NCBI RefSeq assembly: GCF_026930045.1
Contig: NC_072731.1
Location: 137,882,156-137,946,155 of the forward strand
Reading direction: 5' to 3'
Source of the DNA: Uloborus diversus
Lineage: Eukaryota
Length of the DNA: 64,000 bases
Shown: in pieces, positions 2,400-61,110 of the stretch
Layout of the letters: the number at the start of each line of letters is the position of its first letter
Numbering within the stretch: position 1 is the stretch's first letter
Notes under the pieces: model-generated
The model's input: the letters and a program-made list of their open reading frames with translations, nothing else
Database searches by the model: none
Told to the model about the DNA's origin: nothing
Translations under genes and position numbers: made by a program

Positions 2400-2960
2400 G
2401 CACCCGACGCATTCGGATCCCAAATGTTGGGGTCATCGAATGATAATGTAGAAATAAAACAACATTAGATGGATTAAAAATATGGAGATGTAGTGGGTGA
2501 TTAGTGCAAGGTTTTATTTTGAAGTGAAAAATTTAAAGAAAGTTTGAGACGTCTATTGTTTAGAGATTGTTCATGTGCAAGGATATATAAACTGTTGATA
2601 GGTTCGGAAGGCTCCTGTGCAGATGCGCATTGCCTGATTATGTATTGGGTCCAGGCCTTTAGATAGCTTTTCGCTGCAGAGCCATAAAGTTGGCATCCAT
2701 AATCGAGTTTTGAGCGTATAAGAGCCCTGTAGATTCTTTAAAGAGACTCTGTATCAGCTCCCCAAGAAGTTTTTGCTAAGACTTTAAGGATATTTAATTT
2801 CAATAAACATTTTTTTTCTTAGCTCTTGTATGTGCGGTATAAATTTAAATTTTTTATCAAGTGTAAGACGATCAAAAAGATGGAAATCAAAGGGAGGCAA
2901 GTCTGGATTGTGATGGGCGGACAGCATGCATCACGAACATCTGTACGCCTTTCTTCAAAG
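2400..2960 (-). mobile_element. Non-LTR retrotransposon (LINE) ORF2 C-terminal remnant, decayed
   Basis: The minus-strand translation gives '...LKVLAKTSWGADTESL*RIYRALIRSKLDYGCQLYGSAAKSYLKALDPIHNQALRICTGAFRT...'. This matches the conserved post-RT block of CR1/jockey/I-type LINEs (consensus IYRALIRSKLDYG..VYGSA.KS.L..LD.IHN.ALRICTGAFRTSP). Stop codons and frameshifts appear on both sides. Confidence 0.7.
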
Positions 2961-3400: not shown

Positions 3401-5904
3401 TTTTTCTTTCGTGTGCTCTCGCTCTCGGGGGAGAGAGTCTTTGTGGTATTTGAAGGGGGCGCGCTATTCAGGGGTGGATACAGACTACCTTTTGTGAGGG
3501 AAGGGGGACATGCTCAGGAATAACTCCCTCCCCGACGAGCGAGCCTACGGTTTGGGGAGGGGGGAGCATTACTGTTGCTTAGGTGTCAGTAAAAAGCTCC
3601 GATTCGGCCAGGAGTGATGCACCCAATGGGGTAAAAACGTTACAAGTTAATTTAATAAGCAATAAAAAGAAATATATTTCAAATACTTACTTTACATTTT
3701 TTTTATAAATTAAAAATATTGCTGCGATCGTTTACATTTTTTTCATAAATTGTTTGAACATAACGTGAATGTACAAGGGTGTCGATGGTTTAGGGGATGA
3801 TGACCCCCATGACCCTCCCCCTGTATCTGCCACTAGCGCCATTGCTCTTGAGGTCATGGGAACTCCTCCATAATGTGTAGTAATACTAACCTTAAAGCGG
3901 GGGAAATTTAGATGCTAAAATCTGATGAAAATCGAATAAGCAGTTGAGAAAAAGGTTATATATTTATCACAGTGAAACATAAATTAAAAACTCTTTCTCT
4001 GTTTGCCTGCCAACATCGATAAACTCGAGTTGCATTTTGAGCGAATGTATTACTTAGAAACAGCTCTGCTTCATTGACGATAAATCTTATCAAAAAATTT
4101 CAATTATGGATGGCCAAAAATTAGCTTTATGTTTTTTAGGTATGAAGTAAGGTGCACAAACTAATTAATCAGGCGAATTTCTGAAAAGTAAAAAAAAAAC
4201 GGGGGGGGGGAGAAAAGACTGGTAGTGGTTAGATTTCTGAAAAGTCAAAATCGACGAAAATATGATCATTGATATTGGTTCACATTAATGTCTTTCAGCG
4301 GATGACAACAATTTAACGAATGCTGACATTCTAAGCATTGTATCAAAAAAAAAAAAAAGAAAAGAAAAAAAAGCCTAAACTACGAGACTAAATGATGTAA
4401 CTAATAAAAAGGCAAATAAAAAAAGTATGTATCGTAAAGACACGTGATTTTTCTCTTTTACTTTCTAAACTGGCACTACACCGGCACGTTTTCTCTCCCT
4501 ACACACTCTTGCTCTTCCTCCGCCTGACTCAGGCATATTCACAACAAAATTGAAAAAGAAAATAGATTATAAACAACGAGAAAATACTCGAAATCTGCTT
4601 TGTAGTTGTTCCCCAAAACAATTAAATATAACAGTAATAATAAATTTAATTTTGTTAATAAAGGTTAACAAACTTATTTCTTGTCTGAACATTAGATCAT
4701 GATTTTAAACTGATGACTTGACTTGAATGAAGGAAATCTTCACTAACCTACATTATTTAAAAAGTCTAAAATGCTCAAAATAAATAAATTATATGCTTGC
4801 GTGAGTTCAGACTTGAAATTAATTTGTTAAATTTAAGCAACAAAATTAACTTAATAATTACTATTATTTTTCATTGTTCTGTCAACAACTAAAACGCAGA
4901 AGTTTTTAATTTTAGTAATTACTACTGTTTTTCATTCTTTTTGGCAACAATTAAAACAGCAACTACGTCACTTCCGTCACACAAAAAGGTTGCGGATCAG
5001 AAGTTCAAAGCCCTTCGCCGAAAAAGTTTCACTTTAAAAATAAGATTATAATAAAAGACACTAAATTTGTAATAAAAACTACATTTTACGAACAATTATG
5101 CATGGTATAAATTTTAGTGAACCAGAGTTGCTTTAAAATCGTGCAATGTATAACATTTAAAAACCGAACCATAAAAACAATAAAACACGTGTTATAAATA
5201 TTTTCGAAGTGTGCTGTGGACAAACATTTGACAATTTAAATTAGTTGAGATCTATTTTTGGATTGATAGTGATCGTTAATTCGAGTATCAAATATAGTGC
5301 TATAAATGTAATGACACTTACTTCATATAAGCATGCTGTCTTGTAAAGGAACTTTACACGGTCGCTTAAAATCCAATAAAACGTTTTCAATCGTTATCCG
5401 TTACCTGCGAAACTTTTAGCGCAAGTAGCTATGTTTAAAACTTTTGGATCGTCTGCTCTTCGGGAGATAAAAGCAGCGCCATCTCGTTGACGTAAAACCG
5501 TAACATGCCACTTCTACGTTGCATTATGAACGAGTTATGTTCCATTTTTGTCTTCCTTGTGACAAAGGGCATATCAAATTGTATGACAGCTTGAGTTCTA
5601 AGAAAGCCAACGAGTAGAGAGAATGTCATTATTTCAAACAATGTTGATCGGTCGGCATTTGTCTTTTCATCGACTATGATTTTTTTTTTTTACATTGATT
5701 CAAATTTGTATCACTTCTGAGAAAATAAGAAAGAAAACTGGAAAAGTATTGCACATGCTACTATTATATTACTTCTTGAACACTAACGATGCCAGGGGAG
5801 CCAACGAGGGTTCTTGAAATTTAAAGGTTAAATTTAGAATATTTTTGATCTCATTTAAGGCTGCTCTCATTTTGTGGGATGCTATTCCGTAGTATTTGAG
5901 GGGG

Positions 5905-6600: not shown

Positions 6601-6899
6601 TAAGACAGGGGTTTTCAATCTGGAGAGGCACATAAAAAATCTGGCACAATTAGCAATAATAGTTCCAGAAATATTTAACGCTCTGTTATTCCTTTCGTTG
6701 CTAATTGCACTAGATTTTATGTTTTACCGAAACTATACAGAGCTAGTTTTCCTATCAAGCCTATTGCTTCCACTATTGATACAGCTTCTCATTGAGTTGC
6801 TAAATATTTGGTGTCAGTGTTTTCTCCTCTTAAAAGACAGAATTTATTCACAATAAAAAAGTTCTACTGTTTTGTGTTTAAAACACCCATAATTTCGGA

Positions 6900-7260
6900 C
6901 AAAATAGCTCTTTTATGGCTCCTTTTGATGTTAAATCCTTGTTCACTAACGTTCCGGTTGAGGGCTCTTTGGTACACCTTAAGTATGGATTTTTTGAATT
7001 TCATTTTGCCTGTAAGGAATTTGAGGAATTTATTTTTCTTACTTGTATCTGTTTAGAACAATGTTCTTTTGTTTTTAATGGTAAATTTTATGCTACGTCA
7101 GACGGTCTGGTTATGAGAAACCCACTTTTCCCCATTCTTAATGCCATTTAAATGCATTACATTGAAGTTAAGTTATTCCGAAAATTAGTTTCCATTTTAT
7201 GTTCGCTATGCTGATGACTGTTTCGTACTTTTGAGCAAAACAGTTCGTTTCTTTGTTCAT
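6900..7260 (+). mobile_element. Reverse-transcriptase domain remnant, most likely Penelope-like (PLE) or another non-LTR RT; frameshifted
   Basis: ORF 6915-7151 carries the RT motifs 'FDVKSLFTNVP' and 'FxFNGKFY...G..M..PL.PILN'. In a shifted frame, 7195-7225 encodes 'RYADDCFVL', the catalytic YxDD box. There is no intact ORF, so this is a pseudogenised TE. Confidence 0.7.
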
Positions 7261-25340: not shown

Positions 25341-28261
25341 AGTGCTATTTTTACTCTGGTAAAATAGTACTCTGGTGCAATGGTATTTTTACTCTGAACT
25401 TTTTCGTATTGTAATCAGGACCGTTTACGTTATTTAGAAACAGTTGATTTCCTTCTGGTGGAGATTTTAATGGTTTGATGTTCTGACTCTAAAGGGACAT
25501 TATTAGAATCAGGATTTATAGTGATTGTTGACCCTTTTACGGGACGATTTCTACGGTAAGAAAATATACATTATATAATAATTTAGATTTCCGGTGTAGC
25601 GCTGGATGTTATGTATTTGACGGAGATCGGGATTATAAGGGAACTGTTTTACTTTATTTAAGAATAGTTGACCTTACTCGAATTGGATTTTTTTAGAATT
25701 ACCCAAACTAACTTCTTTACAACTCCTGTACGTTTTCAAGATTTATTTTGTGTGATTTTTTGAGTGTCTTCCAAGTTTCGCCGACATTTCATTTATCTCC
25801 CTTCCCTCTGATTTTCAGTTTTAATCATACCTTTTGATACATTTAAGGGGGCAAGCAATTCGAAATGTCATCGAAACTAGAGACAAACAATTTTTCGGTA
25901 ACTATTTGATCTCTGCTTGTAATGACCATTAACTTGAATCAATTGAAAAAAAAAACTACATCAACGTGAGCGAAGCTGCGGGTAAAAGCTAGTTATTAAT
26001 AAGTTTGCGTCATCCGATGCTTGATGAACTGTGCAACCGCCTCTTTGCAAGTGTATTGTAAGGAGAGAAATAAGGCCAATTTTGTCCTTAGCGTTAGCTA
26101 GAAATTCCCTTTGGTTGATTGTTACATCGATTGAGTCGAATTGAGTCGAAATTTCAATATTGAAACTTTGAACAGCGGCAACCCTATGATTGGAGGACTT
26201 TTGCTTAAGCCAGGGGCGGCATTTCAGCATTTCATTTGGGGGGTCGAGTTTCTTTAATATGTATTACCACAGTGCGGTCCCAAACACACATTAGGTAACA
26301 GGAAGTAGTCAAAAAATTGGTTTAATACGAATAAAAATTAGTGTTTAGAAACAATTAAAATTTTGATTCACTTTCTAATAAGTTACCATACAAAACATCT
26401 CGATACTAAAGTTTTTATACCTTTTGGAAAAGTTTTAGTGCATGATTTTTGGAATTCGGGAGAGCAGGGAATCGTGTTACTAATTTATCAGTGCCCAGTG
26501 CCGTTGTGTTTTGCCAGTACAGCTAAATAGATTTTTTTTTTTTTTTTTTTTTGGCCCATTGTGCTTTGAAAATAAGTCTCTAATCTCCTGAGACAAAAAA
26601 AAAAATCTTTCTCTGCTAGTTGAGCTGATTGGAATAGTTAAAAACAATTAAAGCGAGTTATTATTAAGAGTTTTCATAAAACAAAGTTATGTATGAAAAC
26701 TCTTTTTATATCTTGCTCTTCAAAATCACTCAGGCAGCTTCAAAAATTGTTAGGGGCTTAATTTTTCATCATTGAATAATCTAGTCTCGTGGGCGCTCTC
26801 AGCTTCAATGAGACGTCATCTGCCTCCATCCCTGTTATTCACTATTTCAGACTGATGAGTCCATTACAAGGACAAACTGCAGTCTCTGGATGTGATAATC
26901 AGTTTTTAGGTACATTGCTTGTAATTATTCCTGCCTCATGCTAAAAATTTTACTCATAACTGAAACATTTTATTTTTCGTTTTCAAAATCCAATCCAGAT
27001 AATATAGAGCCAACCATACAGAAAAATAATTATCATCAAATCTTGTGTTAATTTCATTCAAAACTGAATCTATTACTTCATACAAAATATTGAAAAATCA
27101 ATGCTTGACTTCACATCATCATGTGGATTTTTGTCACTTTTTTTTTTTTTTTTTTTTGCGCCTTTTTAAAAGTGGCTAGGAGGTAGATTTTTTTTTTTTT
27201 TTTTTGAAAAGTTTCACGATGGATTGAAATATACATCTATGTAAAATCCATTTTCAGTTTCAATTATAGATTGAACTATAGTAGTATGGTGCACAGATCA
27301 ATGATAGATTGAACTGTGGTTTGAATAGTCCGAAAATTAAGCGTAGCGGATTGAAGATGTTTTGATAGAGTAAAGCATTTTTCAAAAACGTTCTTCAATA
27401 CAAACAAATTGAATAAAAATTCAAACGAAGTCCATACATGAAAAAGGGCATGAGCTTTTTCACCATTGAAAGAATCCTTTTGCAATAATTCTTCCAGTCG
27501 TCAAATCACTGCTTTGAAGTTATAAAGAAATCTTTTTATGGTTTTAACTCTTGAAGACCATCTTGTGTCACTCCGAGATTGCATAATTATAGAGCCTCAT
27601 AAAAGGTATTTGTTGATATGTTTTTTTATTCAATAATCACACGCATTTTTAAGAAGTTTCTATGAAAGCATATAATGCATTGAGCAGCTGAAACGTGTTT
27701 CTAGCAGAAGAAAGCGATGAACACTCAATAAACCATACACTTAAAAAATGAGCTTATACACTTAAAAAATGAGCGTAAATGTGAATGTAAAATATCAAGG
27801 AATTTTCTTACGAAAACCTTGCAGCCACACCACTTTGCACGAGTCTCTTATATTGGACACACCATACTGGGCACAGAAGTATGAAATATTTAGCCTATAT
27901 GAGGAAATGTCTTCTTTAGTTAAAATTAACCATGGTTCTTTATCAATTTTCTCTGTTTTGAAAGGGCCGGAAAATACTTCATGAATTTCTAAGTCATCAT
28001 ACAAATAACGAAAAACCCTTTTTCCAGTCTGAAAATGTGTTGAGAGTTTCATCAAATAGTTACTAAGAACCAGCGAGATTTTTTTTTTAATGAACATTGA
28101 TTTCCGACTCACATAAAATGAATTCACCCATTTTCTCTCATTCTGCTCAAAAAATTTGGGGGTGCGACCGCCCCCTCTTGACCCCCCTATTTGCCGCCCC
28201 TGGCTTAAGCAACCCTATACCATCGGTTTTTGTAATATTTTTATTTTCCTTTTTTTTACAT

Positions 28262-28860
28262 AACTTATATGGAAACTCGAGGAGGGTAAATTACCCATTT
28301 TTGGGCACTTTTTAGCCATTGGCAAGCTTGATTAGTACACACGCAACAGATAGGCAACCTTACTTTAACGTTTTCTTGACAAATTTTACTCTTCATTAAT
28401 GACAACAATTTTTGGAAACTCGATGAGGGTAAATTACTCATTTTTGGCCACTTTGTAACCTCTGGCAACCATTCTTAGGGACCGGAAAAGTAGGCAACCT
28501 TTCTTTACTGTTTTATTTACAGCTTTTACTTTTCATTTATGACAACGTTTTCCGGAAACTTGATGAAGGGTGAATTATCTCCCTTATTGAAAACCTTTTA
28601 CCTCCTGACAAGCTTGATTAGGGAGCCAAAAAAGGTTGGCAACCTTAGTTTAGCGTTTTATTTCCATCTTTTGCTCTTCCTTTATGGTAACGATTTTCGG
28701 AAACAACTCGATGAGGGTAAATTACTCATTTTTAGGCACCTATTAACCCCTGGCAACTCTGATTAGTTCACGTGAAAGAGGTAGAAATTCTTACTTTCAT
28801 ATTTTACAACTTTTACTCTTCATCTATGGTAACAATTTTAGGAAACTCGATGAGGTAGGT
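28262..28860. repeat. Satellite of ~140-bp units, about 4.3 units
   Basis: The repeated unit is 'ggaaactcgatgagggtaaattactcatttttgg.cac.tt...aacc.ctggcaa.c..ttgattag......aggcaacctt.ctttaacgtttt.tt...cttttactcttcat.tatg..aacaattttt'. Confidence 0.85.
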
Positions 28861-44990: not shown

Positions 44991-46089
44991 AGAAAATACA
45001 TTGAAAACTTGATCTGGTCTATTGTTGTCTGAGTCTACACGTTGTCCTCTGCTTGAAACTGTTAAAAGAGTTTTTTTAGTCCATCATTTACCTTTTTTTT
45101 TTTCAATTTTTTAAAACTTAATCATCACTTGTCGTCTCGAATGATTAATAAAGTTCAACATGGTAAACGTAGGTAACGTTCTTTATTATTTGCCTAGGTT
45201 TTGATATAGGAACATTTGAAAACTAGAAAAATCTCACCAACTAAAGGCTTGGTACCTATACTTAGGTCTCAGAAAATACGTAGGTCTGACAAATTTTAAG
45301 CGAAATAAAAAAATAATAAAAACGAAAACTAAAATGCGAAATCTCACATTTCTTTTATTCCAAATCTCATTAAAAAAAAATATTTTTTTAAAAATTATCT
45401 CAGTTTGTATTTGGTCCGGATTTCAGTCAGCACCTTCTTCAAAAACTCCTATGAGTACAGGCGATAGGGCGACCCCCAAATTTTCTTCTATCTTTTCTTG
45501 CCATTATTTACAATAAATAACACAAAATATCGCGAAAGCATTCCTACAGAGAATAAAATAAAGCCCCAAGCCACTAAAAACCGTGAAAAATAGGTGGACT
45601 ATTGTTGTACCCCAACGTTCCCATTTTCGATAAATGTTGAGAGCTTGTGAAAACTAGGAAGCATTTTAAGTCAACAAGCGGCTTAATTCATAACTGACAA
45701 ATTAGTAAAGCACATCCGAACTTACCAGACCTTGGAAAACAGTATAAGTGGTCTGCTCAAAAGGAGACTTATGTCTCTTCCACGAATGAGTCGAATCACG
45801 CACTAAGAACGACTAAGTTATCTAAGGTTACAAAAACAATGGCAATCTCTGATAAAGCGTCTTTAACTACCTAAATTGTTACACTACCTGGTGTGTTTTT
45901 TTTTTTTTTTTGAACACGTAAGTTCGAAAATGATGCCACTAGAGAGCAAAATTATCGGGATAGTAACAGTGGCCCATTGTTGCCCCCTTGGCGCAAAGTT
46001 GTACCGTTTTACGGTAATGAATGATGATGGTTAAAACTTGCTGCAGTTGGTTGTTTCAACAAGCTGAAAAACTAAGTATATTAGGAATG

Positions 46090-46538
46090 CTTGAAATACA
46101 CCGCCAGCTCAGTCATTTCCAGCCGAGGACTGCAGTTTCGTGCTTATTAGCACTCATCAGCCCGACATAGGAAAGTGACTGAGCTGGAGATGGAAAACCT
46201 CTTAAGGAAGCCAAGAGTGCCAAACAAACTGGTAGCTGAACTAGATAGAATTAGCACGGACCCAGACGAGTGACCGAAACAATGGTTCGGTTCAACTCGA
46301 AGATTGATGGCAAGGTATGGTATATTTAATAAATTACCGCCCATTAGCATTGTTTCGGTCACTCGTCTGGGTCTGTGCTAATTCTAGTTCAGCTACCAGT
46401 TTGTTTGGCACTCTTGGCTTCCTTAAGAAGTTTTCCATCTCCAGCTCAGTCACTTTCCTATGCCGGGCTGATGAGTGCTAATAAGCACGAAATTGCAGTC
46501 CTCGGCTGGAAATGACTGAGCTGGCGGTGTATTTCAAG
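46090..46538. repeat. Near-perfect long inverted repeat (hairpin): arms 46090-46284 and 46348-46538 (~195 bp, ~97% identical), loop 63 bp; flanked by a 13-bp direct repeat 'tatattaggaatg' (46077-46089 and 46583-46595)
   Basis: The reverse complement of the right arm differs from the left arm only by a 4-bp indel ('atag') and about 5 substitutions. The loop end 'aataaattaccgcccattagc' is repeated in reverse as 'gctaatgggcggtaatttatt' at 46558-46578. Confidence 0.9.
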
Positions 46539-47699
46539 TATTTCTGCTTTAGCCCTGGCTAATGGGCGGTAATTTATTGAATATATTAGGAATGATCTTA
46601 TTTTAAGAGATAACTCTTTCATTCAAAAACTGTTATTCTCCTTTAAATAATTGAGCATTTAAAACAATTGTATGTCATTATATTATTGAAGAAGTACGTA
46701 AAAAGAAGACATAAATTACGCAACAGGAAGTCATAGGATTACGTAGTAGGAATTCGTAATTTACGAATTCCTAATCAAAAAAAAAAAAAGAAAGATTCTG
46801 CAAAAGGGCCGTTCCACGAAAAAGTAAACCCTTTGTCCCGCAAGTGTCGGTTGATATATTTCATTAAAAAGTAATAATTTTGAAAGGTAATGACGAAATA
46901 TTTTTATATTAAGATATCACAGATAAGTTCGCAATTTGTTAAGCAGAAAAAAATGTGTTCATTATTATTTTAAAGTATTATTTTTAATGAAATATATGAG
47001 GCGTCACGTGCGGGAGAAAATGGCCGTTTGCCGGAGAATAGCTCGAAAGAGGTTCAATTTAACTTTTAGCAAACTTCTTTGGACGAATTTAAGAATGTGG
47101 CTAAACCGTGGCGCCCTTGTTTTCCACCAACAGATGCGAGTTATTTCTGCAGCGGAGATAACAACTAGGGGCATGGTTTGCTCGCCATATACTTGAAAAC
47201 TTTTCCTGAGGCTTTATTTTTGAAACCATATGCAGAGGTAGAGAATTTCTGTGACGTCAGTGCAAAGCTCAGATCGATGGAATTTTCCCGTTCTACATTT
47301 TTATATCAATACCTTAACTTAAACTATAAATTTGACATCCGAAAATGGGGGTATATTAGGATGCAAAATTTGTAGTTTAATAACCTATCTGTCATCTATT
47401 ATTTACAAGAAACCATAAACCAGATTTCATAAATTTAAAATTAATGACAAAAACTAATTTCAAACTGCTAAGAATCAGTTGCAAAAATACTAATAAAAAG
47501 TGATTTATACAGGTGCTCAAACTTTTTTTGCGATAAAGCAATGGCAAAGAAATAAATTATTGATAGCTATTATAGCAGCAAAGAGTATATTGGCAGAATT
47601 ATAAGTATTATATATCATTTGAAAGTTCGAACGATTTTAGTTCTGTACCAAGTAGTTTTAAGTTATAAATTGTTTTATTAAAAAAAGCCATACGTCTAT

Positions 47700-49935: not shown

Positions 49936-50214
49936 TCACCACCAATTTTGACCTTGAACCTTAAAAACCGGACTGAAATTTTCTTCATGGCATATTAATG
50001 AAGCTCCAAATGAAGTCAATTGAAAACAACAGTTGTATCGACATATATTTTGTAGAAAATGATTAGAGTCTGGTGTTTTTCCAGTCATATATTCGACTAA
50101 TTGTGGTGGTAGTGCATCTAATGCCGATAAATTGACTTTACCACTAGAGCAGCACATACCAGCAGTTTCGCCTTTAAATTTCTGAGCATGGCAATACTCA
50201 CATATCGTATTCAT
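49936..50214 (-). mobile_element. Helitron Rep/Hel N-terminal (Helitron_like_N) fragment
   Basis: The ORF translates to 'CEYCHAQKFKGETAGMCCSSGKVNLSALDALPPQL...FLQNICRYNCCFQLTSFGAS'. This carries the CxxCxAxxFxxExxxxCCxxGKVxL zinc-finger-like motif and the IRxYNxxFxFTSxG motif typical of eukaryotic Helitron Rep N-termini. The Arg-rich upstream stretch is decayed and no helicase follows. Confidence 0.6.
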
Positions 50215-50643
50215 TTTTTCGATGACAATGTTTGGATGTTCACTGTACTGTTTTTTGCAATCATAACTGGAAGCCTGGAGTTCTAAACTGCTTAATTGAT
50301 GTGTAGCAGCTCGTCGTTAGCGTAAAGCAGACATTCTTTCGTTTTTTCTTCTATTTTTCAGTTCACGTTGATCGGCAGATTAACGATTTCTTAGTGATCT
50401 CACTCGAGATCGGGTTTCTTCATTAGTATGTGCTCTTTCCTCTTCAGTTACATTTTCTCTATTTTTTTTACTCCTTTGCGAATAGTCGAAAGACGTTGTT
50501 CTCCTGTTTCTGTTTGACGCGCTACTTTTTTCTTTTTGAATCCAGTTTAGGTTTTGAAAATACTTTCATTCGTCTTGGCATTGTAAATATAAACAGTGTA
50601 ATATGATTACTCAAAACTCATATCTGGATTGGTACACGAAGAT

Positions 50644-50900: not shown

Positions 50901-51460
50901 AAGATTACAAATAGATCTTAGCAGTTGTCCACGTTTTAGAACTACCTAGATCATTCTAAATTTTTTTAGAACGTTCTAGATCATTCTGGATATTTCTAGA
51001 ACCTTCTAAGTCGATTATAACGTTCATAGACGTTTTGCAACTTTCTAGATCATTCTAGAACCTTTTAGAACTTTCTAGATCATTCTGGAAATTTTTAGAA
51101 CCTTCTAGAACATTCTAAGTCGATTATAACGTTCACAGACGTTTTGGAACTTTCTAGATCATTCTAGAACCTTTTAGAATTTTCTAGAACATTCTAAGTC
51201 GATTATAACGTTCACTGACGTTTTGGAACTTTTTAGATCATTCTAGAACCTTTTAGAACTTTCTAGATCATTCTGGAAATTTCTAGAACTTTCTAGAACA
51301 TTCTTAGTTGATTGTAGCGTTTGCGCATGTTTTGGAACTTTCTAGATCATTCTAGAAATATTGAGAATCTTCTAGAACAATCTAGATCGATTGTAACAGT
51401 TGCACACATTCTGGAGTTTTCTAGACTATTCCTAAAATTTTATGAACTTTCCCGTAGTTC
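50900..51460. repeat. Satellite built from ~20-bp 'ttctagaacattctagaacc' subunits arranged in ~80-110-bp higher-order units, about 6 units
   Basis: The unit 'acattctaagtcgattataacgttcacagacgttttggaactttctagatcattctagaaccttttagaa.tttctaga' repeats. Confidence 0.85.
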
Positions 51461-53939: not shown

Positions 53940-54690
53940 TCCAATGGGGGGTCATGGGGGTCATGACCCCCCCCCCCCTTAGCCAGACCAAACATTACAC
54001 AACAGGGCCTTTTTAATCTTCCTGTTACTGAATTTTTCGAAGGAGAAATTGAGGACCACCCAGTTTGTGAACAAATTTAAATTATATCCAAGCACAAAAT
54101 TATGGGAAAGGGGGGGGGGGGACAAGTGTGGGTCAAGAGGGAGGTCATGGGGTCATGACCCCCCCCCCCCCTAGCTAGACCAAACATAACCCAACAGAGC
54201 CTTTATAATCTTCCAGTTACATATTTTTACGAAAGAGAAATTGAGGATCACCCACTTTATGAACAAATTTAAATTATATCCAAGTGCAAAATTAAGAGGG
54301 GGGGGAGGGGCAAGTGTGGATCCAGGGGGGGGCATGGGGATCATGAGCCTACTCCCCTTAACCAGATCAAACACTACCCATCAGATCCTTTTTATTCTTC
54401 CAGTTACAGATTTTTTCGAAGGAGAAATTGAGGATCACCCAGTTAGTATAAAAAATTTAATTATATCCAAGCGCAAAATTTACGGAGGGGAAAGGCGTGG
54501 GTCCAAGAGGGGGGGGGGATCATGAGGGTCATGACCCCACCCCCCTTAACCAAACCAAACATTACCCACCAGATCCTTTTTAATCTTCCAGTTACAGATT
54601 TTTTTCGAAGGAGAAATTGAGGATCACCCAATTTGTGTATAAATTTAAATTTTATCCAAGCGCAAAAATAGGGGGTGGGGGGAAGCGTTT
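53940..54690. repeat. Satellite of ~188-bp units, 4 copies, with palindromic 'ggtcatgacc' cores flanked by G/C runs
   Basis: The unit is 'gtgggtc.aagaggg...tcatgggg.tcatgacccccccccc.ttagc.agaccaaacat.acc.a.cag.gcctttt.aatcttccagttaca.atttttcgaaggagaaattgaggatcacccagtttgtgaacaaatttaaattatatccaag.gcaaaatt'. ORF 54241-54525 is an artefact of it. Confidence 0.85.
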
Positions 54691-55388
54691 TTGTATTTAA
54701 ATTAGAAAGATTTTCGTGCTGAGAGCTCTGGCTTTAAGCAGTTTTGAAGCAGCATATTGCAGTTATATATAGACTGCAATGCATATCTCAACACAAAATA
54801 CTTGGTACCTCTAAAAAACGATGTAGAGGCTTTGCTTGAAAAAAAAAGTAAAGAGGGGGTGGAGCAGGGGTTAAAGTAATTTTTATTGGATATTTATAAA
54901 CAAATTCTGGCAAATAGGTTTTTCTTTAAAAACCTGGAATTACTTCTTGGATTTTTTTTTAAATTATTTTTTTTTTTTTTAAGTGGAATATATTGTTTGA
55001 ACAGATCATTGATAAACCTCTATTGCGGTTACATCTATATTTGCACATAAACAATTAAAATATTCGCAAAAGAGTTGTTTTGCGGAAAATAAATTTCTTT
55101 AAGTGTGCGTAAAACAGTGAAACCTCGCTTAACGTACACTCCTCATTTCGGACTTTTTTTTTTTTAATTTCCTCCATTTTCTAGGATTAAAACATTAAAT
55201 TTCCCTTTATTAAAGTGGAGACTCTCAAACTCGGTCACGGATACAACTTTTCTTGTAAAAAGGATTTTTACTCTCATCAAAACGAACACTCTTCGACAAT
55301 TTTGGCTAAATGTGTTTAGTTTTCTATCTTAAAGCATTTTTGCCGCAAACTCTGCTAGCAGGTAATAATAACGTAGTTTTATACAAAA

Positions 55389-55790
55389 GTGAGGGATTTT
55401 TATAAAGGACTTTTGCCAGTTAATACATCATCGCTGCAAGTTGAATATCAACTGTGGGTCGCGAAGTGGAGACGGGAAAAGAATCAAAATCCAGTTAAAG
55501 ATTTCCCTCCATGTATCATAAAACTTATCGAAGAATGTGACAAGGACATGTATCCTGGAATAAATTGCCTTCTTCGACTCATAGCTACATTGCCATTTAG
55601 TATTGTCACAAGTGAGCGAACCTTCTCGACATTGCGGCGTTTAAAAACCTGGTTAAAAGCCTCAATGTGTGAGGAATGCCTTGTGGGACTTTCTCTCTTA
55701 AATATCCACAGAGACATTGATGTAAACATTGACCACATAATCACTAGATTCGCAAAGAAGTCGAAAAGGAAGTTAAACTTTGTCTTGTGA
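55389..55790 (+). mobile_element. hAT transposase C-terminal dimerisation (hATC) domain remnant; the N-terminal part is absent
   Basis: The ORF begins with GTG. It carries 'LLRLIATLPFSIVTSERTFSTLRRLKTWLKASMCEECLVGLSLLNIHRDIDV', which matches the hAT family C-terminal motif (…SERxFSxLxxxKTxLRxxMxxERLxxLxLLxIHxD…). The frame is closed by a stop 15 nt upstream. There is no BED or RNaseH-like region in the upstream 3 kb. Confidence 0.8.
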
Positions 55791-60279: not shown

Positions 60280-61110
60280 CAATAGTCATTTAGCTAGGGA
60301 GTCCGGGGGTTTCTCCTCCGGAAAATTTTCGAAATTGTAGCTTTAAAACCAGTTTTTGACGATCTCTGGTGAAGCTAGGGGAATAAAAGGTTCGGCGGCC
60401 CCTTCCCAATAATTTTTCAATACTGAAACTTCAAAAACGCAATTGTAGATACAGATAGCCTACCGTTGTGTTAGGGAGAGGGGACGTGTTCGGAGACTCT
60501 TCTCCGATAAGTTTTCAAAATTGTATGTATCTAAAAAGGGAGTTTTAGACTATCCGCTAGAGATTCGGGGCCTCTCGCTCCGGAAAATTTACGCGATTAA
60601 AGTCTTAAAAACGCTATTTTAGGCTATGGGTTGGGGGAAAGGCAGTTTTCTGAAATTGATCCTCTAAAATTGCAATTGTAACCGAACTAAGTGACGTTAA
60701 GAAAAAGGGTTTTCAGAAGCTCTCCCGGAATTTTCTTGAAATTGAAGCCCCGAAAATCAAATTTAAGACGATCTTTACTATTGTTAACGAGAGTGGGAGA
60801 AGGGAGAGGGGCGCTCCACTTAAATTTTTGAACTTGTAGCTTTAAAGACGCAGTTTTACTAGATCTTGATAATGTTAGTGAAAGGTGAATTTCGGTGCAA
60901 TTCGCTCGGAAATTTTTCGAAATTGATACTTCAAAAACGCAATTCTAAGACTGTCTTTGATTTTGTTAAGGAGATGGGGCGGGGGAATCAGGAGCTCTCT
61001 CCTACAAAATTTTCAAAATTGCAGATTGGACAAGCAGTTTATATGACTCTTGATGATAAAGAGGGAGTTATTTGGGCATTACAGTGGGGGCGCTCGCCTG
61101 GAAGTTTTCC
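60280..61110 (+). repeat. Satellite family of ~115-bp units, locus 2 with about 7 units
   Basis: See the evidence for 31900-32300. ORF 60866-61240 (124 aa) is an artefact of the array. Confidence 0.8.

Follow-up and report, generated by a model that had tools for sequence, protein, structure and literature searches.

We analyzed a 64,000-nt stretch of the Uloborus diversus genome (NC_072731.1, positions 137,882,156 to 137,946,155 of the forward strand; hereafter the window, in whose numbering all positions are given), which holds a 492-bp insert built as a near-perfect inverted repeat and flanked by a 13-bp direct repeat at 46077-46089 and 46582-46594. Each arm of the inverted repeat contains a complete type-I hammerhead ribozyme core. 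The locus is probably a single young insertion in the style of Penelope-like elements (PLEs), in which two 5'-truncated copies of a non-coding, hammerhead-bearing retroelement lie head to head; as part of the same reading, the element would belong to an already known kind, the metazoan non-LTR (long terminal repeat) retrozymes or mini-pLTR (pseudo-LTR) derivatives of PLEs. The ribozyme, missed by an earlier note on the letters of the window, is the key feature of the locus. The direct evidence comprises the inverted geometry, the target-site duplication (TSD), a one-sided tail, a segment in permuted order in the two copies, a hammerhead in each copy, the fold of an older relic at 26.8 kb and a remnant of a PLE reverse transcriptase, while the enzymology of the proposed mechanism is drawn from the literature.

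Geometry and fold of the inverted repeat

The left arm (46090-46284, 195 nt, minus strand) has its 3' end directly at the left TSD without any tail, and the right arm (46348-46538, 191 nt, plus strand) is 5'-truncated at the junction of the two copies. Global alignment of the reverse complement of the left arm with the right arm gave four mismatches, all of them transitions (46258/46374, 46199/46429, 46165/46463 and 46135/46493), and one 4-nt gap, corresponding to ~98% identity. A repeat search recovered the same structure as two blocks, 46083-46245/46383-46545 (163 nt, 97%) and 46246-46284/46348-46386 (39 nt, 97%), the second being offset from the first by the 4-nt indel. The arms enclose a 63-nt loop (46285-46347), and the loop end, 46321-46348, is complementary to 46558-46585 at 27 of 28 nt (96%). 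The earlier note had described these features accurately, namely ~195-bp arms with one 4-bp indel and a few substitutions, a 63-bp loop, an identical 13-mer on either side and a loop end that recurs inverted beyond the right arm. The long duplex that it expected from folding was obtained as well: the predicted RNA fold of 46077-46595 has a free energy of -406.6 kcal/mol, compared with -144.9 ± 7.0 kcal/mol for shuffled sequences (z = -37.6). The element forms a GC island (46% GC versus 32% in the 2-kb flanks). By blastn, neither a second copy of an arm at comparable identity nor, with the flanks of the element as queries, a paralogous empty site was present in the window, and TRF detected no tandem array at the hairpin locus. 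A match to the Rfam microRNA family mir-2001 at 46262-46370 (minus strand; 27.4 bits versus a cut-off of 74) was rejected as a microRNA gene because this region is merely the loop-proximal stem of the inverted repeat.

Such a structure could also be a functional hairpin RNA (hpRNA) gene, whose inverted repeat is kept because the transcript is diced into endogenous small interfering RNAs (endo-siRNAs), for example against its own retroelement family or a host gene. Arthropod Dicer-2 processes hairpins of this kind, the long inverted repeat can form double-stranded RNA (dsRNA) as a near-perfect ~195-bp duplex with a short loop, and the arms are 98% identical where copies of the other repeats seen in the window share 72-94%. 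In addition, PLE copies evoke abundant small RNAs in rotifers and Drosophila (PMC3846280). Nevertheless, we consider this origin unlikely, since the insertion mechanism set out below already accounts fully for the structure and no identifiable target exists besides the element itself; the high arm identity together with the intact TSD indicates simply youth. Production of small RNAs is compatible with an insertion as its secondary consequence, rather than being an alternative origin. The Drosophila hpRNA loci, reportedly described by Okamura, Czech and Kawamura in 2008, share with this locus the long inverted repeat and the short loop, which as dsRNA would suit Dicer-2. Known hpRNAs are defined by their small-RNA output and are mostly aimed at host genes, and the present locus would differ from the Drosophila loci in originating from a transposon insertion.

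A type-I hammerhead ribozyme in each arm

The hammerhead domains occupy 46099-46192 on the minus strand (left arm; core CUGAUGA at 46160-46154, followed by GAAA) and 46436-46529 on the plus strand (right arm; CUGAUGA at 46468-74 and GAAA at 46489-92). Both arms hold the full core, C3-A9 (CUGAUGA), G12-A14, A15.1-U16.1 and C17, plus the G10.1-C11.1 pair. The right-arm motif reads GCCGGG-CUGAUGA-GUGCU-AAUA-AGCAC-GAAA-UUGCAG-UC/CUCGGC, where the slash marks the predicted cleavage site. In this copy, helix I consists of 6 bp (GCCGGG at 46462-67 with CUCGGC at 46501-06), helix II of 5 bp (46475-79 with 46484-88, closed by the loop AAUA), and helix III of only 2 bp (A46492-U46499 and U46493-G46498) capped by the palindromic tetraloop UGCA; the helix III octamer ACUGCAGU is self-complementary. 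The left copy has the same helix II (GUGCU/AGCAC with the loop AAUA) and a helix III of A-U and C-G pairs with the loop UGCA. Stem I extends past an internal loop, UAU/U, by a further 5 + 12 bp, and helix I is the open one, as in the type I topology. This architecture agrees with that of published canonical metazoan type-I hammerheads (PMC4209133). Two of the differences between the arms lie within the ribozyme, and both keep the base pairs, one changing C-G to U-G in helix I and the other U-G to C-G in helix III. From the motif, cleavage is predicted between 46500 and 46501 on the plus strand (after C46500) and between 46128 and 46127 on the minus strand (after C46128), which places the two predicted sites ~370 bp apart. 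Our initial assumption that such a ribozyme would act obligately as a dimer was given up, because invertebrate hammerheads with a 2-bp helix III and a tetraloop cleave efficiently as monomers (PMC7229834).

At gathering thresholds, Rfam gave no match anywhere in the window, and the hammerhead surfaced in E-value mode only, with full-length matches to HH9 at 46107-46177 (minus strand, 27.9 bits; E = 1.2e-4 locally and 0.008 for the whole window) and 46451-46521 (plus strand, 26.3 bits; E = 4e-4 and 0.029, respectively), where the whole-window E values are taken over all 4227 families. The matches of the arms to the hammerhead clan were the only ones in the window not due to microsatellites or low complexity. 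A structural descriptor demanding the exact core, at least 4 bp in helix II, at least 5 bp in helix I and a short helix III matched only the two arms within the window. In 1000 shuffles of the 64 kb that preserved dinucleotide composition it had 0 matches, and a relaxed descriptor had 0.001 per shuffle. A weak descriptor match at 4710, with a 3-bp helix II and an AT-only helix I, was dismissed as chance. The left and right domains are predicted to fold with -48.9 and -51.6 kcal/mol (the latter over 94 nt), each with a z-score of -8.3. Finally, a covariance model built from a three-sequence alignment of the two arms and the relic described below, and run with filters off, scored the left copy at 117 bits and the right copy at 115.8 bits and revealed no further copies in the window.

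A metagenome scan for the hammerhead signature found six loci, of which just one, L006, and in part a second, L010, proved to be genuine type-I hammerheads, both of other families. These two (L006, 1408-1497 on the minus strand of contig Ga0105240_10178229; L010, 1199-1241, minus strand) are of eukaryotic origin. They have the same helix III as the arms, CGAAACUGCAGUC, and L006 also has an extended stem I. As a calibration, L006 and L010 score 32-33 bits against the Hammerhead_1 cut-off of 34, likewise just under threshold.

An older relic of the family at 26.8 kb

Searching the window by nhmmer with the reconstructed unit (see below) as query revealed a solo relic with a hammerhead domain at 26781-26912 on the plus strand. 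The match itself, at 26781-26893 (plus strand), covers unit positions 48-161 with E = 5.6e-6 and 66% identity; overall, the relic is 55-66% identical to the young copies and scores 79.9 bits with the covariance model. Its core CUGAUGA is intact and its helix III, ACUGCAGUC, is the same as in the arms. Helix II reads GUCC/GGAC, and helix I reads UUCAGA/UCUGGA, a different sequence in which six of six positions are nonetheless paired, and in three of these pairs both bases differ from those of the young copies. Across the alignment there are 8 compensatory pairs, compared with 0-1 in controls in which the 3' partners were slid by 1-3 columns, and the loop-1 bases UAU/U are invariant amid the covarying helices. 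The covariation thus counted comes from three sequences, two of them nearly identical, with the structure derived from one of them, and it lends the fold modest support that is consistent in direction. The relic has lost G12 and is therefore probably inactive. We found no partner repeat near it and no terminal inverted repeats (TIRs) like the 28-nt one at the hairpin locus. The relic shows the family to be old and dispersed in the genome.

Two permuted copies of one repeat unit

The extra sequence on either side of the arms allowed us to re-parse the locus into segments U (the arm), x (46546-57, or from 46539), T (46558-85) and y (the reverse complement of 46285-46320). The plus copy runs from 46348 to 46585 in the order U-x-T, and the minus copy runs from 46348 down to 46090 in the order T-y-U. 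In the minus copy, T forms the 28-nt 5' end (46321-46348, minus strand), complementary to the T of the plus copy (46558-46585, plus strand), and y is a unique 36-nt sequence between T and U (46285-46320, minus strand; a putative member of the unit) that makes up part of the 'loop'. On this parse, the 'loop' is no spacer. Base 46348 is common to both copies, so that their 5' ends abut head to head with a 1-nt overlap, whereas the 3' ends point outward next to the 13-bp duplication. At its 3' end, the plus copy holds ~40 nt (x-T) absent from the minus copy; this one-sided tail (46539-46581, plus strand), which lies beyond the symmetric arms, occurs solely there and is ~36-47 nt long, depending on how the microhomology is assigned. 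That T lies 3' of U in the plus copy and 5' of U in the minus copy implies a tandem or circular template with a period of ~273 nt, of which each copy would cover less than one unit. With two partial copies at a single locus as the source, we infer that the unit reads U-x-T-y, repeats every 273 nt and has two alternative 3' ends, one after ...TATTTCAAG and the other, ~40 nt away, after ...TTATTGAATATA. A hypothetical 273-nt circle would fold with -95.3 kcal/mol (shuffles, -65.3 ± 4.9; z = -6.1), to which the ribozyme stem contributes most.

The center of the element (46321-46362, plus strand) contains TATATTTAATAAAT, followed ~30-40 nt on by GGTCACTCG (TCACT). By analogy, this arrangement resembles the TATA-plus-initiator of rotifer pLTRs (PMC3846280) and, speculatively, could drive the plus copy alone.

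The permutation bears directly on the reading of the locus as a DNA transposon of the miniature inverted-repeat transposable element (MITE) type. There, the right unit (46321-46585, ~265 bp) would be a MITE with 24-28-bp TIRs and TA/TATA duplications in the Stowaway/Tc1-mariner style, and the left arm would be a partial inverted duplicate of its interior. The 28-nt inverted repeat 46321-48/46558-85 is indeed 96% complementary with TATA at both outer ends, the locus is AT-rich, and remains of a DNA transposon (hAT) are present in the window. Against this stand the following points. First, the 13-bp repeat flanks the whole composite and not the right unit, and it stays unexplained. Second, the exact start of the left arm at the TIR/U boundary and the presence of the 36-nt segment y are left unexplained as well. 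Third, a MITE leaves the conserved and covarying hammerhead without a rationale, and such ribozymes are known from retroelements (PMC4209133, PMC7229834). At last, no second copy with such ends exists in the window, and the 26.8-kb relic lacks such TIRs. We therefore regard the MITE as improbable. Two suggestions of the earlier note lose ground with it. A MITE or head-to-head MITE dimer is not supported in view of the hammerhead, the head-to-head 5'-truncated copies, the tail at one end and the long TSD, and the right arm does not appear to be a TIR-bounded unit, as the 28-nt 'TIR' is what two permuted copies of a unit in tandem or circular form would produce. Taken together, the hammerhead and the PLE-type insertion anatomy, including a TSD longer than is usual for DNA transposons, argue for a retroelement rather than a TIR-bounded DNA transposon.

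Target-site duplication and junctions

The two copies of the TSD, TATATTAGGAATG at 46077-46089 and 46582-46594, form an exact 13-bp direct repeat. Outside them lie ...AAAACTAAG on the left and ATCTTATTTT... on the right. Complex direct repeats of at least 13 nt at a spacing of 300-700 bp occur only ~3-4 times in the 64 kb when tandem arrays and poly-T tracts are excluded; because such 13-mers are so rare in the window, the repeat at both ends of the inverted repeat is not a chance occurrence. At the left junction, the last 7 nt of the TSD (AGGAATG) agree at five of seven positions with the reverse complement of 46539-46545, the start of x, and judging from the sequence this match may be a priming microhomology. 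At the right junction, the last 4 nt of the plus-copy T, TATA, overlap the TSD, and the 13-bp duplication may accordingly comprise 9 bp plus the TATA microhomology. The view of the earlier note that the hairpin might be a very young foldback insertion with a long TSD was thus essentially right, in that one insertion event, a 13-bp TSD and arms ~98% identical describe the locus.

The same junctions speak against formation of the inverted repeat on the spot, in which a pre-existing single copy would have been duplicated in inverse orientation by replication template switching or snap-back synthesis, and against a fold-back artifact of the assembly. Fork stalling and template switching can yield head-to-head palindromes, Arkhipova et al. 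considered self-priming as a source of PLE inverted repeats (PMC3846280), and PLE-type structures are known to trouble assemblies (PMC8557442). However, a duplication in place would make no 13-bp TSD around the composite, and neither copy is a simple duplicate of the other, because their 3' ends differ and the minus copy has a T-y stretch absent upstream in the plus copy. Assembly fold-backs should be perfect palindromes, but four substitutions and a 4-nt indel (2%) separate the arms. We hold either event to be very unlikely.

A possible mechanism of insertion

The anatomy described above suggests the following course of events. A source of tandem units (or a circular RNA) of ~273 nt in the order U-x-T-y would be transcribed. 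A PLE reverse transcriptase/GIY-YIG endonuclease acting in trans would make a staggered double-strand cut at TATATTAGGAATG, and both exposed 3'-OH ends would prime reverse transcription on the retrozyme-like RNA. A first start at the end of T would produce U-x-T on the plus strand with its ~40-nt tail, and a second start ~40 nt upstream, at the end of U, would produce the tail-less T-y-U on the minus strand. The two cDNAs would stop after 238-260 nt and be joined at 46348, and gap repair would then duplicate the 13-bp target.

The geometry agrees with what has been published as the hallmark of PLE integration. Inserts of PLEs were described with inverted pLTRs of ~180-220 bp, one of which bears a 31-bp tail, and with TSDs of 8-10 bp (Arkhipova et al. 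2013, PMC3846280); their pLTRs are most often arranged head to head, and pLTRs alone are enough for mobilization in trans (PMC3846280). In PLEs at large, an inverted, 5'-truncated copy and a tail of 30-40 bp on one side recur (Craig et al. 2021, PMC8557442). Once purified, a PLE protein was shown to cut both DNA strands and to extend them (Frangieh et al. 2024, PMC11167929), and it starts reverse transcription at two internal sites 30-40 nt apart, a spacing that defines the tail (PMC11167929). Furthermore, hammerheads reside in pLTRs, and circular RNA templates have been proposed to explain reverse transcription of more than one unit (Cervera & de la Pena 2014, PMC4209133). At our locus, we likewise found inverted pLTR-like repeats of ~200 bp with a hammerhead, a near-exact head-to-head junction of inverted and direct copies, 5' truncation, an extension of 36-47 nt at one end and a short TSD of the variable kind, here 13 bp. 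It differs from PLE insertions in having no reverse transcriptase-endonuclease (RT-EN) open reading frame (ORF), no internal region and a TSD of 13 bp rather than 8-10 bp.

The geometry is also similar to L1 twin priming, reportedly described by Ostertag and Kazazian in 2001, where both ends of a break are said to prime, so that an inverted 5' segment becomes joined to a direct 3' segment within one TSD. In both cases the two ends of a staggered break would prime reverse transcription within a single TSD. In L1 twin priming, however, the two segments come from adjacent, non-overlapping parts of the RNA and form no hairpin, whereas here both segments span the same ~195 nt.

A Penelope-like reverse transcriptase in the window

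A decayed, frameshifted PLE-type reverse transcriptase lies at 6640-7230 on the plus strand. Its motifs are read across frames (RFYVLPK..IKPIAS, FDVKSLFTNVP and YVRYADDCF), and its homologues are RVT_1 proteins of spiders, from Uloborus diversus (61% identity, E = 7e-61) and Stegodyphus mimosarum. The homologous loci carry the DKG motif, which is diagnostic of canonical PLEs, Naiads having DKA instead (Craig et al. 2021, PMC8557442). A PLE reverse transcriptase is the enzyme class that would mobilize the hammerhead element. No homology to the arms was found in five related PLE loci of other species (Stegodyphus, ENA and Logan contigs).

Comparison with retrozymes and evidence to the contrary

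Non-LTR retrozymes are metazoan tandem repeats of ~170-400 bp with a type-I hammerhead, low GC and a TSD of >4 bp (Cervera & de la Pena 2020, PMC7229834), and they have been argued to derive from PLE pLTRs (Li, Clavereau & Pollet 2026 preprint, bioRxiv 10.64898/2026.07.22.740005). Like them, the element described here carries a canonical type-I hammerhead, whose 2-bp helix III and tetraloop recall those of invertebrate retrozymes, has a compact and highly paired predicted monomer RNA and co-occurs with a PLE. It would also resemble them in being non-coding, with a unit of 273 nt as reconstructed from two partial copies, a GC content of 46% and a TSD of 13 bp. It differs from them in that its copies are inverted instead of forming at least two consecutive direct units, each with a type-I hammerhead, and in that each copy is shorter than one unit, so that no monomer can be released by double self-cleavage; moreover, no tandem array of the hammerhead family was seen in the window. 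None of the papers searched describes a retrozyme from a spider. In Schistosoma mansoni, hammerhead pairs that lie on opposite strands at distances of 100-700 bp have been read as PLE remnants (PMC4209133). The present pair, with ~370 bp between its opposite-strand cleavage sites, is similar to them in arrangement, but the Schistosoma mansoni hammerheads are minimal and without helix III, while those of the spider are canonical with helix III and an extended stem I.

The longest ORF in the element has 71 aa, and no RT-EN ORF such as an autonomous PLE would have lies between the repeats. Translated frames of the arms found no homologue among 5.8 billion proteins, scans of prokaryotic genomes and viral contigs gave nothing beyond chance 20-mers, and ARAGORN detected no tRNA-like sequence that would point to an origin of the short interspersed nuclear element (SINE) type.

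Several observations nevertheless weigh against a PLE-style insertion of a retrozyme. Regarding the element itself, the copies are inverted, whereas an active retrozyme is operationally defined by tandem copies, and no other young family member was retrieved, so that the unit order, the period and the 3' ends rest on one locus. The HH9 scores of 26-28 bits lie below the curated cut-off of 52. With regard to the insertion, the TSD of 13 bp exceeds the 8-10 bp reported for rotifer PLEs, and the tail, possibly up to 47 nt, would be slightly over the 30-40 range. As for the PLE, its remnant lies 39 kb from the hairpin and is physically unlinked, neither a hammerhead nor a pLTR was detected beside the remnant, nor a hammerhead in the five related PLE loci, and we found no autonomous PLE whose pLTR is homologous to U.

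Expected behavior of the locus

Each strand carries a single sense ribozyme, which leaves no way to release an RNA of unit length. In either direction of transcription the antisense arm is made first, and a read-through transcript should therefore zip into the ~195-bp duplex and sequester the ribozyme, the predicted fold of which (-51.6 kcal/mol over 94 nt) is far weaker than this duplex. Such a transcript would thus be a long hairpin. Most likely, then, the locus is a dead-end copy, with the hairpin as a by-product of insertion.

By analogy, one might imagine that the inverted insertion turned a ribozyme-bearing retroelement into an hpRNA gene, whose duplex would be diced to siRNAs that silence the retrozyme or PLE family in trans. 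We give this idea little credence; if true, however, the locus would act as a natural counterpart of maize Mu killer, a 'killer locus' that arose as a direct by-product of PLE double-strand priming.

Neighboring features

The window is rich in transposon debris and satellites. An ORF at 55377-55787 (plus strand) has a hAT C-terminal dimerisation domain (Pfam PF05699, E = 7e-7), with its best relative 55% identical. By eye, 49939-50316 (minus strand) is a Helitron-like N-terminal fragment (ICEYCHAQKFKGETAGMCCSSGKVNL) and 2504-2737 (minus strand) a C-terminal fragment of a reverse transcriptase of the long interspersed nuclear element (LINE) type (RSKLDYGCQLYG), neither of which has a Pfam match. 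Just 3' of the element, the sequence TAGGAATTCGTAA-T-TTACGAATTCCTA forms a perfect 13 + 13 palindrome (46747-46773), and 46832-46870 pairs with 46981-47019 as a separate inverted repeat of 39 nt (85%, 110-nt spacer); both may be other small foldback or MITE-like elements. Satellite-like arrays are located at 28271-28855 (143 bp x 4.1), 50931-51425 (units of 79/109/188 bp) and 53946-54682 (192 bp x 3.9), the last of which includes the palindrome GGGGTCATGACCCC; none of the three contains a hammerhead core. Finally, exact direct repeats of 13 and 17 nt, at a spacing of 499-500 bp, are found at 60335-60444 and ~500 bp downstream, which points to a further element, duplicated or repeated, toward the end of the window.

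Implications

The analysis reclassifies an apparent regulatory hairpin gene, probably correctly, into a recognizable class of mobile elements. It would add a chelicerate, a spider, to the cases of a canonical type-I hammerhead within a retrozyme-like or PLE-derived repeat. Within 492 bp, the locus displays what appear to be three known hallmarks of PLE integration: priming of both strands, two starts of reverse transcription that leave a one-sided tail, and a head-to-head junction. That these hallmarks occur in a non-coding passenger supports the idea that PLE machinery mobilizes retrozymes. For annotation, it would follow that hairpins of this kind should be screened for ribozyme cores before they are labeled as hpRNA loci or MITEs.

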